Assembly: GCA_016180085.1 (NCBI GenBank)
Contig: JACPBX010000008.1
Location: 1-34,078 of the forward strand
Source of the DNA: Candidatus Woesearchaeota archaeon
GTDB lineage: Archaea > Nanobdellota > Nanobdellia > Woesearchaeales > UBA10216
Length of the DNA stretch: 34,078 nucleotides
Direction: 5' to 3'
This document shows, piece by piece, positions 20,811 to 23,586 of the stretch; within the stretch, counting starts at the first letter, position 1, and each line of letters opens with the position of its first letter. The position numbers were made by a program, and so were the translations under genes. The notes under the pieces were generated by a model. That model worked only from the letters and a program-made list of their open reading frames with translations. It was not told the origin of the DNA and made no database searches.

Positions 20811-21067
20811 ATGATTTTCTCCCCAGTATCCTTATTTTTCAGGTGTATTACGTTTACAGGGCAGGCTTCGGCTGCGGTCTGGTCCTCTTCGAAATCCTTG
20901 TCATCTTCATCTATTTCGAGCTCCTGCCAGCCGTCTTCCCTCTGCTTCCCAGATCTTATGTCTGACTTGCCGTCTTCGTTCATCTCCCAGCGCTTTGGGC
21001 TGACAGCAGCGCAGGCAGCGCACCCAATGCAGTTTGGCCTGTCGTGCTCAAGCAAATACTTCGTCAT
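20807..21067 (-). CDS. Single-cluster 4Fe-4S ferredoxin
   Basis: CIGCAAC...AAEACPVNVI. Confidence 0.9.
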   Translation of the reverse strand: MTKYLLEHDRPNCIGCAACAAVSPKRWEMNEDGKSDIRSGKQREDGWQELEIDEDDKDFEEDQTAAEACPVNVIHLKNKDTGEKII

Positions 21068-21812
21068 TAGGCAACACCTTTATGGACTCGTAGCCTTGGC
21101 TTTCTATCTGGTGCGCAAGCTCAGGCCCTCCGCTTGTCGCAACTCTCCCGTCAATCATAACATACACCCTGTTTGGCTTTACATAATTGAGTATTCTCTG
21201 GTAATGTGTTATCAGCAGTATGCCCGTCTCAGGAGTGGCCAGCTTGTTTATCCCGTCTGCAACAACCTTCAGCGAGTCAACATCCAGGCCGGAGTCTGTC
21301 TCGTCAAGTATTGCCATTTCGGGCTTCAGCATTGCCATCTGGAGTATCTCAGCGCGTTTCTTCTCCCCGCCTGAAAAGCCTTCGTTGATGTAGCGGTGCA
21401 TGAATGATTCGTCAATTTTAAGCATCTTCATTGTTTCCTTGAGCTGCTTTATGAATTCTGCAACAGCTATCGGGTTCTTTTTGTCTCTGCGGCTGTTCAT
21501 GGCTGTCCTCAAAAAATTGGCCGTGCTCACCCCGGGAACTTCGCTTGGGTACTGGAATGACAGGAACAGCCCTTTTCTGGCGCGCTCGTTCGTTGGCAGC
21601 TTTGTTATGTCTTCGCCCTTAAACATTATCTGCCCTTTGGTTACCTTGTAGCCTGGGTGGCCAAGTAGCGCATAGCCCAATGAGCTTTTCCCTGCGCCGT
21701 TTGGCCCCATCAAGGCAACTACTTCGCCCTTGCTGACATCAAGGCTTACCCCTTTGAGTATCTCTTTGCCTTCAACTTCCACACGCAGGTCTTTTATTTG
21801 CAGTTCGTTCAT
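21048..21812 (-). CDS. sufC: Fe-S assembly ATPase SufC
   Basis: GPNGAGKS, FLSFQYP, NEGFSGGEKKR, LDETDSGLDVD, ITHYQRIL. Confidence 0.97.
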   Translation of the reverse strand: MNELQIKDLRVEVEGKEILKGVSLDVSKGEVVALMGPNGAGKSSLGYALLGHPGYKVTKGQIMFKGEDITKLPTNERARKGLFLSFQYPSEVPGVSTANFLRTAMNSRRDKKNPIAVAEFIKQLKETMKMLKIDESFMHRYINEGFSGGEKKRAEILQMAMLKPEMAILDETDSGLDVDSLKVVADGINKLATPETGILLITHYQRILNYVKPNRVYVMIDGRVATSGGPELAHQIESQGYESIKVLPNDEVFA

Positions 21813-22269: not shown

Positions 22270-23586
22270 TCACAGCCTATTATCGCTTTTTGCCCATGAT
22301 TCAGCGGTTTGGGCTGGCTTTTTTAGCTTTGCGGCTATTTTCCCAAGTGCCTCAGCGAACTTTTCTATTTCTTGTGTGGTGTTGTAGAGGTAAAAGCTTG
22401 CCCTTGTTGAGCCTGCTGTGCCCAGAAGCCTGGCAAGCGGCATGGCGCAGTGGTGGCCTCCCCTGACAGCTATTCCCGCAGCATCCAGGAATGCTGATAC
22501 ATCGTGCGGGTGGGCTCCGTTAAGGTTGAATGCAACCAAGCCACTTCTCTTGGCAGCATCCTTTGGCCCGTATACGGCAACACCCTCTATTTCCTGCAGC
22601 CTTTTTAGCGCCAATTTTGTAAGCAGTATCTCATGCTCCCAAACGTTTTCCATCCCAACCTTCTGCAAATAGTCAACAGCTGCCGTCAGCCCGACGGCTC
22701 CGGCCATGTTTGGAGTTCCTGCCTCAAACTTCCAGGGCAGCTCGTTCCACTTTGCGCCTTCTAAGCTTACCTCGCTTATCATGTCCCCTCCGTAAAGGAA
22801 AGGTTCCATTCCCTCAAGCAGCTCCCTTTTGCCGTAAAGCACCCCTACGCCTGTTGGCCCGAGCATTTTATGCGCTGAGAATGCCAGGAAGTCGCAGCCA
22901 AGCTCTTTCACGTTCACCGGCATGTGTGGCACTGACTGCGCGGCATCGACAACAGTTACAGCTCCAATTTCCTTCGCTGCAGCAATGATTTCCTTGGCTG
23001 GATTTATTGTTCCCAGAACATTTGAAACGTGCGTGAATGCAACTATTTTCGTTTTCTTCCCTATTGTTTGCCGCAGCTGCAAATCGGACGATGTCCGATT
23101 GCACATTCCGCTTGTGGCGGAATTGTGCTGTAGCTTTAATTCGCCGTTGCCGTCTATTTCCAAAAACCTGAGCTTTGCCCCTGTCCTTTTCGCTGCCTGC
23201 TGCCACGGGACAATATTGCTGTGGTGCTCCATCTGCGTCAATACTATCTCGTCACCTTTCTGCAGCTGCTGTGACAAAGAGCTTGCAACAAGGTTGATTG
23301 ATTCTGTGGTGTTCTTTGTGAAAACAACCTCCTCCATACACTCAGCGCCGATGAAACCGGCAACCTTTTCATGGGCTTCGTCATACGCTGCAGTAGCTTC
23401 CTGGCTCAGCCTGTGCACTGCCCTGTGCACGTTTGAGTTGTAGGTTTCATAATAATCATTCGTTGCCTGTATTACCTGCCTCGGCTTTTGCGTTGTTGCA
23501 GCGTTGTCAAGGTAAACCAGCGGCTTCCCGTAAACCTTCCTTTTCAATATAGGGAAGTCCTCTCTTATCCTTTCAGCGTTAAGCAT
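22270..23586 (-). CDS. sufS: Cysteine desulfurase SufS (with a ~17-aa insertion)
   Basis: YLDNAATTQKP, MEHHSN, DAAQS, SAHKMLGP, FEAGTPN, RGGHHCA, RASFYLYN. Confidence 0.96.
   Translation of the reverse strand: MLNAERIREDFPILKRKVYGKPLVYLDNAATTQKPRQVIQATNDYYETYNSNVHRAVHRLSQEATAAYDEAHEKVAGFIGAECMEEVVFTKNTTESINLVASSLSQQLQKGDEIVLTQMEHHSNIVPWQQAAKRTGAKLRFLEIDGNGELKLQHNSATSGMCNRTSSDLQLRQTIGKKTKIVAFTHVSNVLGTINPAKEIIAAAKEIGAVTVVDAAQSVPHMPVNVKELGCDFLAFSAHKMLGPTGVGVLYGKRELLEGMEPFLYGGDMISEVSLEGAKWNELPWKFEAGTPNMAGAVGLTAAVDYLQKVGMENVWEHEILLTKLALKRLQEIEGVAVYGPKDAAKRSGLVAFNLNGAHPHDVSAFLDAAGIAVRGGHHCAMPLARLLGTAGSTRASFYLYNTTQEIEKFAEALGKIAAKLKKPAQTAESWAKSDNRL
23078..23128. repeat. 51-nt double-hairpin element inserted in frame in sufS
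   Basis: TGC-A-AATCGGAC-GAT-GTCCGATT-GCA and GCAC-ATTCCGC-TTGTG-GCGGAAT-T-GTGC; GCTG direct repeat 51 nt apart (23076-23079, 23127-23130). Confidence 0.78.

Follow-up and report, generated by a model that had tools for sequence, protein, structure and literature searches.

The SufS protein encoded in the window (the whole 34,078-nt stretch of archaeal DNA under analysis) carries a segment that nearly all of its closest homologues lack, and the DNA of this segment folds into two abutting hairpins. This raises the question of where the segment came from, whether it is retained in the protein, and what determined its position within the gene. The explanation that best accounts for the data, held here with a probability of roughly 87%, is insertion of one copy of a mobile DNA repeat that forms hairpins, is non-autonomous and is specific to a single genus of groundwater Woesearchaeota (DPANN). 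The features on which the argument turns are the following, with the hairpin arms read along the coding strand.

22270-23586, minus strand: sufS, the host gene (from the ORF list), encoding a type II cysteine desulfurase of 438 aa.
23080-23127, minus strand: the inserted double-hairpin element, 48 nt, encoding residues 155-170 (HNSATSGMCNRTSSDL) and absent from 118 of the 120 closest SufS proteins.
23102-23127, minus strand: hairpin 1, with a 4-bp foot, a bulged A on the 5′ arm, a 6-bp stem (AATTCCGC core) and a 5-nt loop; arms 23127-23117 and 23111-23102, loop 23116-23112.
23080-23101, minus strand: hairpin 2, in which a 3-nt loop closes a 6-bp stem (CAATCGG core) on a 3-bp foot and a T bulges out of the 3′ arm; arms 23101-23093 and 23089-23080, loop 23092-23090.
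23073-23079, minus strand: the native target CAGCTGC, directly 3′ of the element; it is the empty site in a relative (G005), and the same target is used in the RtcA and RNase H-like genes.

According to the ORF list, sufS is a member of a sufB-sufD-sufS-sufU-sufC cluster, and the encoded protein retains both the PLP lysine K240 and the catalytic cysteine C380, each in an invariant alignment column. The match between the window SufS and SufS of B. subtilis (5XT5) is strong (E 1e-143) and is interrupted by a 16-residue gap precisely at the insert. A search of the genome that holds the window (G000; 998,598 bp in 45 contigs, 83% complete and, like all of the genomes compared, a metagenome bin) found no second sufS. 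The RNA fold of 23065-23140 has a predicted energy of -31.1 kcal/mol versus -16.0 ± 2.7 for shuffled sequences (z -5.6, with 0 of 200 shuffles as good), and the DNA fold of the same interval reaches -20.6 kcal/mol, also with a z of -5.6. Together with a chance expectation in the window of 0.0-0.1 occurrences for the 43-nt core and for each hairpin pattern, these values indicate that the double hairpin is real.

In an alignment of SufS with 14 relatives taken from whole genomes, G000 shares the 16-residue segment with G007, a second species of the genus, and with no other relative; eight further species of the genus and five other genera lack it. The insert is likewise missing at the DNA level in 13 of the 14 relatives, and a collection of 5.8 billion proteins yields, among its 120 best matches, no carriers other than the window SufS and the G007 SufS. 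The closest insert-less relative at the DNA level is G005, whose empty site reads CTGCAG^CAGCTGCGG where G000 holds 48 nt. As the insert-less orthologues read ...LKLQ-QLR... and thus keep both glutamine codons, the insert is exactly 48 nt, or 16 residues. A first-pass annotation of this DNA had described an extra in-frame segment built of two abutting hairpins, and had named the folding of the region and the search for an empty site in close relatives as ways of checking it; the stable fold and the orthologue gap bear out the description, and G005 supplies the empty site. Its size estimate of about 17 residues is one residue too large. The GCTG direct repeat that it placed 51 nt apart does exist, but removing one unit does not restore the loop, as the loss of 51 nt takes one native codon too many, and the repeat is therefore part of the target sequence and not a target-site duplication.

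The distribution of the insert also bears on its age. The SUF locus of G000 is closer in nucleotide identity to that of the insert-less G005 (79%) than to that of the insert-carrying G007 (74.5%), and the 48 nt in sufS are identical in G000 and G007 within flanks that are 84-89% identical. In a SufS tree from which the insert columns were excluded, the window SufS groups with two insert-less proteins (support 98) and the G007 SufS groups with an insert-less protein of 93% identity (support 100), and a clade of the two insert carriers is rejected by the AU test (p 0.004). Since the carriers are not sisters, there were either two insertions of one element variant at one site or a transfer of a short patch between species that occur together. 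The identity of the two inserts could reflect such a short-patch exchange instead of two insertions, and under either route the sequence comparisons support a sufS event that is recent relative to speciation. Elsewhere in the SufS alignments, a Woesearchaeota-like homologue of 436 aa (P0055) has a private 30-residue insert at a different position (columns 391-421 of alignment A3), which may be a different inserted element.

The sufS segment is a member of a dispersed family. Four further clear copies with 84-92% identity are present in G000, where in-frame copies include those in aIF5B and in a 365-aa ORF, and the peptide frame HNSA..GM.NR..DL is common to the SufS insert, aIF5B and another ORF. 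A strict pattern comprising hairpin 1 and the start of hairpin 2 detects 5 copies in G000 and 1-12 copies each in seven of the nine other genomes of the genus, with none in 50 genomes of other genera from the same family and order; a reversed control pattern gives no match. In a scan of one genome per prokaryote species, matches are found almost only in 'Candidatus Woesearchaeota' MAGs from groundwater, apart from three contigs of 1.5-3.7 kb in other bins, which are probably mis-binned. The pattern also occurs in 39 metagenome stretches, some of them labelled Hainich groundwater, and is without a match among the viral contigs of IMG/VR, on which ground a viral origin is rejected.

A covariance model built from 49 copies (R1) scores the sufS element at 71 bits and returns 5-71 matches in every genome of the genus, with weaker matches in four other genera. 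The weaker matches within G000 have the same design of two hairpins with one bulge each on different stem sequences, and they reveal a wider superfamily around the element. The pairs at the foot of hairpin 1 covary across copies, and the top stem pair of hairpin 2 has undergone compensatory changes (GC in 23 copies, AU in 6 and UA in 1). Stems are the same and loops differ between copies, although the pattern used to collect the copies prescribes the stem cores, and that alignment is therefore no measure of stem conservation. A search of Rfam with 22800-23400 returned nothing relevant.

Protein-coding genes are frequent hosts for the element, with 24 of the 49 fetched copies located within reading frames of at least 190 codons and the host gene supported by Pfam for most of these. 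The hosts include SufS, aIF5B, the RNA 3′-phosphate cyclase RtcA, a thioredoxin-reductase-like flavoprotein, Trm1, the GatA amidase, a PMT_2 glycosyltransferase, SufC, an RNase H-fold protein, a methyltransferase and Rrp4. Both orientations occur within genes (14 versus 10) and all six frames are used, and 17 of the 24 copies use the two frames in which the start of the element coincides with a codon boundary. For genes filled in other species, the orthologue in G000 is empty, and the protein alignments show gaps of 15, 16, 31 or 32 residues; the cleanly aligned DNA gaps are exactly 48 nt in RtcA and the RNase H-like gene and 96 nt relative to SufC of G008; the sites in GatA, Trm1, the methyltransferase and one further locus (L037) are too diverged for base-exact DNA boundaries and are represented by their protein-level gaps instead. 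The aIF5B copy of G000 is in turn absent from G005, G008 and G003, again as an exact 48-nt difference. All told, filled and empty sites differ by exactly 45, 48 or 96 nt. The thioredoxin-reductase-like copies of G000 and G005 were left out as an orthologue pair because the reading frame differs in G005 and indels distorted the mismatch count. Other copies are intergenic or nested inside each other. The repeated finding of filled and empty versions of the same site establishes that the element is mobile.

The lengths of the copies follow a rule. Among the genus copies, 31 are 48 nt long, 15 are 45 nt and three have other lengths, such that 46 of 49 (94%) measure 45 or 48 nt, and the same holds for 27 of 32 metagenome copies, which form an independent sample. 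Loop 1 and hairpin 2 combine in lengths of 3+21, 4+20, 5+22 and 6+21, and each of these four combinations gives a total divisible by three. The three off-length genus copies lie outside long frames, the longest ORFs that span them having 178, 178 and 71 aa. Stop codons are similarly rare, with 37 across six frames in the 49 copies versus 171 after shuffling (0.76 versus 3.5 per copy), and 24 of the 49 copies (49%) are stop-free in all six frames versus 2.5% of random genomic 48-mers. The remaining stops sit in the variable loops, and the conserved stems are free of stops in all six frames. A length that is a multiple of three and stems without stops allow the element to occupy protein genes and to be translated, and since a spliced or skipped insert would have no use for either constraint, the inserts are most likely translated and not removed.

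The consequences of translation for SufS can be gauged from an AlphaFold model based on a 120-sequence alignment (mean pLDDT 91.8, pTM 0.90), which was used in place of a model from 14 sequences that was too poor to use (pLDDT 62.7). The only SufS segment with a pLDDT below 50 comprises residues 154-166, which form a coil that leads from a strand to helix 168-174, and the prediction thus renders the insert as a disordered loop of 16 residues placed after a beta strand and before the next helix. From the fold class, we infer that the loop would be exposed at the surface, distant from the PLP site and from the SufU interface, and harmless, and SufS with the insert probably still works as an enzyme. 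The first-pass annotation had interpreted the segment as a recent insertion of a small palindromic mobile element, to be examined further on a predicted structure and by a search for other in-frame copies. Both lines agree with it, as low confidence in the SufS model is confined to a coil at the insert and in-frame copies are present in aIF5B and the 365-aa ORF of G000 and in housekeeping genes across the genus. The mobile nature of the element is upheld by the filled and empty sites and by the copies across genome and genus, and its recent arrival by two carriers that are not sisters, one of which has an insert-less sister at 93% identity.

The empty sites further reveal a pattern in the choice of target. 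At each of the four CA-type empty sites (SufS, RtcA, the RNase H-like gene and aIF5B), the sequence is G^CA and the CA occurs once; three of the four continue as CAGCTGC or a near variant. In G000, CAGCTGC has 871 occurrences versus approximately 122 expected, a seven-fold over-representation, and GCAGCTGC has 460 occurrences versus approximately 30 expected; these counts indicate that the preferred target is abundant, probably through runs of Ala, Gln and Leu codons. On the same counts, three of three CAGCTGC-like targets far exceed what the genomic heptamer excess would explain.

Targeting is also reflected in three dinucleotides that match, namely one at the left edge of the element, its complement between the hairpins and the same dinucleotide just after hairpin 2. 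In sufS, the first two bases of the target, CA (23079-23078), repeat the first two bases of the element (23127-23126) and are complementary to its central TG (23103-23102). This three-way covariation holds in 45 of the 49 genus copies and 29 of the 32 metagenome copies, with five dinucleotide types represented (CA, CG, TG, CT and TA), and the central pair can extend either hairpin. Copies of the CG type are nested at CG inside the loop of another element, and the covariation together with the empty and nested sites indicates that the target dinucleotide equals the element's own. The boundary consists only of this 2-nt direct match, which is present once in empty sites, and insertion is therefore precise, with an ambiguity of at most 2 nt. 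The matching of the boundary dinucleotide suggests sequence-guided targeting, and it is expected if the central dinucleotide guides the element to its site by base pairing, as in IS608, or if integration needs a 2-nt microhomology.

Nesting is found within genes as well. The SufC of G008 (L039, G008:C2 ~160298-160393) has a 96-nt in-frame insert of 32 residues within its ABC ATPase domain, which is made up of two units of 48 nt, a double hairpin of a different kind and, nested in one of its hairpin loops, a CG-type element, and the window's sufC (21048-21812) is empty at this insertion site. A metagenome contig (L153:1520-1620, OBEQ012679477.1) holds a CG-type element at a CG in the hairpin 2 loop of a CA-type element and, as read from its sequence, offers a clear case of an element nested in its own kind at a target of the matching type.

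Several further loci illustrate the range of arrangements in which the element and its relatives occur. At G000:C41:1473-1565, a copy and two hairpins inserted at the 3′ foot of its hairpin 1 form a four-hairpin composite in a 145-codon frame. The copy at G000:C1:23479-23525 has apparently matching sites in G001, G007 and G008 (L025, L068, L029 and L044 in all), with the same stems and different loops. This apparent four-species locus adjoins TATA-like boxes and in G001 lies within a 264-codon frame; in three of its copies, loop 1 and hairpin 2 differ in length in ways that cancel out (45 nt), the G008 copy is 44 nt long, and a CTGGA direct repeat flanks three of the four. The tRNA-Gly(GCC) gene at G000:C29:50539-50706 contains a 96-nt intron whose body is formed by a related 'CCC-type' double hairpin in reverse orientation and a third hairpin module. 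As ARAGORN finds only 12 tRNAs in the whole of the G000 genome, many tRNA genes are probably hidden by such introns.

Other explanations for the sufS segment have to be weighed against insertion of a mobile repeat. The hairpins could constitute an RNA or DNA signal with a function for the host, such as a protein-binding site, a translation pause or a determinant of mRNA stability, that is kept by selection. Covariation at the stem feet, stems that stay constant while loops differ between copies, and the identity of the G000 and G007 sufS copies over 48 nt within flanks of 84-89% identity are in keeping with such a signal. It is nonetheless very unlikely to explain the segment, given that copies occur in either orientation, use all six frames of unrelated genes, lie between genes and nest in each other, that no Rfam family matches, and that orthologues without the element are the rule, as a signal required by sufS would not be missing in 118 of its 120 closest homologues. 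The segment could also be an adaptive, lineage-specific loop of SufS that is selected as protein, for example for partner binding, with the hairpins incidental to it. A peptide that is identical in two species and a frame (HNSA..GM.NR..DL) that recurs in aIF5B and another ORF are compatible with this, but in other genes the same DNA, read in other frames or from the opposite strand, yields unrelated peptides, the segment is disordered in the AlphaFold model and the closest SufS proteins lack it, which leaves an adaptive loop scarcely credible and the least probable of the alternatives.

The remaining alternative is that the insert is removed, either by bulge-helix-bulge splicing or by ribosome skipping of the kind known from T4 gene 60, to yield a SufS without the 16 residues. 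Two observations favor removal, in that a related double hairpin forms part of the 96-nt tRNA-Gly intron in G000 and the sufS insert lies between two CAG codons that resemble matched take-off and landing codons. Bypass elements are similar in being hairpin-forming inserts of about 50 nt and of mobile origin in an essential gene. For an archaeal bulge-helix-bulge intron, two 3-nt bulges four bp apart would be required at the junctions, whereas the predicted fold has single-base bulges and a three-way junction, and this candidate is rejected on that basis and because the length and stop constraints favor translation. Bypass inserts carry stop codons and have no need of a length that is a multiple of three (bioRxiv 10.1101/2022.08.31.505936, PMC5009743), unlike the copies described here, which avoid stops and of which 94% have a length divisible by three. 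Programmed translational bypass is rejected as well, as no stop codon follows the putative take-off codon in sufS and other copies are without matching flanking codons. Elements that are removed need neither divisibility by three nor stop avoidance and the copies show both, so that removal is highly improbable, and a mobile repeat that is translated with its host gene stays the preferred reading.

As to how the mobile repeat moves, a tentative mechanism can be put forward by analogy with known systems. Single-stranded DNA cut-and-paste or copy-in would move the element, a trans-acting enzyme of the HUH/Y1 type would read the bulged hairpins, and the central dinucleotide would act as a guide that pairs with the element's end and with the target dinucleotide, as in IS200/IS605. 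Such a single-strand, dinucleotide-guided mechanism of the HUH/Y1 type is possible but doubtful. It is an equally provisional suggestion that the element carries its own 2-nt address, with the CA, CG, TG, CT and TA subfamilies each homing to their own site and with length and codon content shaped by selection. If this were true, the element would represent a minimal, 48-nt guide-programmed mobile DNA in DPANN archaea, moved by an enzyme yet to be found, and selection would have let it live inside essential genes of a nearly gap-free genome. A search for the Y1_Tnp domain (PF01797) across the genus gave no match in G000 (83% complete), nor in G007 and G008, which are rich in copies; of the ten genus genomes, eight lack a detected Y1_Tnp, and the domain is present only in G002 and weakly in G005. 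TnpB-type genes were found in two genomes by a search across the genus for the TnpB zinc-ribbon domain, and a scan of the flanks of the Y1_Tnp and TnpB genes did not find the element's hairpins beside them, and thus revealed no link and no autonomous partner.

The genomes of DPANN archaea are tiny and densely packed with genes, which leaves mobile DNA little space. A length divisible by three combined with stems that are stop-free in six frames suggests that selfish DNA can persist in such genomes by hiding in essential proteins. For genome annotation, inserts of 15-32 residues could be mistaken for lineage-specific protein features, with distortion of alignments and trees as a result. The gain of the same sequence at the same site in two non-sister sufS genes, together with the matching of dinucleotides, provides a testable handle on target choice in repeats resembling the Rickettsia palindromic elements (RPEs) or REPs; to our knowledge, target choice is still open even for the Rickettsia elements. 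The related modules in tRNA introns of G000 additionally link the coding-gene inserts to intron origin.

Among known systems, the closest parallels are palindromic repeats that enter protein genes. RPEs are palindromic repeats of 105-146 bp (Ogata et al. 2000, as cited in PMC2229807 and PMC10969869), and the element resembles them as a dispersed palindromic repeat with open frames that is inserted in frame in many unrelated conserved genes, has empty sites in relatives, is tolerated as an extra peptide and has no known transposase. The differences are that RPEs are single long stem-loops of bacteria, whereas the element is an archaeal unit of 45-48 nt with two adjacent bulged hairpins that nests in itself and in related modules and has a dinucleotide-matched target. 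The likeness to RPEs drawn in the first-pass annotation therefore extends to in-frame insertion in housekeeping genes, and not to size or build, the element being far smaller. With multi-copy hairpins, in-frame insertions and empty sites, it belongs to the functional class of RPE-like in-frame palindromic selfish DNA. Membership in the Rickettsia RPE families proper is rejected given its 45-48 nt, its two hairpins and its occurrence in Woesearchaeota, as judged on published RPE sizes. Palindromic repeats with coding potential are also described for Methanocaldococcus jannaschii (Suyama et al. 2005, cited in PMC2229807), and these are likewise archaeal, contain open reading frames and are fused into protein genes; lineage and sequence differ, in a comparison that is drawn from the citing description and does not extend to size, structure or target.

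Other parallels concern the hairpins themselves and the way in which they might be recognized. REPs and REPINs are short imperfect palindromes, often paired and of high copy number, with bulged bases that are read by an HUH/Y1 enzyme (PMC8266576, PMC3479197), and the element shares with REP/REPIN and their RAYT (TnpA-REP) the short, imperfect, often paired palindromes with bulged bases. REPs are extragenic and accompanied by a single-copy RAYT gene that is flanked by REPs, whereas many copies of the element are intragenic and most of the genomes that carry it are without a detected Y1 gene. Assignment to REP/REPIN with RAYT is rejected accordingly, with no Y1_Tnp detected in eight genomes, no hairpins beside it in the other two and many copies within genes. 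In IS608, the target is recognized by base pairing with a guide inside the element (PMC3201880, PMC5934647), and IS200/IS605 elements and their transposase-less derivatives are similar to the element in having imperfect hairpins at both ends, no target duplication and insertion beside a short specific sequence. The observations that would fit single-strand transposition of the IS200/IS605 type comprise the hairpins, the precise insertion and the three-way dinucleotide covariation, with the enzyme missing. The element differs in that no transposase gene lies inside or nearby, the unit is only 48 nt long, and one shared 2-nt putative guide lies between the hairpins in place of two 4-nt guides. 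A classical MITE is rejected, as no parent element was found and the boundary has only a 2-nt match that is single in empty sites.

Literature searches returned no description of such elements in Woesearchaeota or DPANN, and one survey reports a high MITE density in a 'Woesearchaea' genome and nothing more. What is new is this family, its length rule and its dinucleotide-matched targeting, and the kind of element is one already known from RPE-like repeats.
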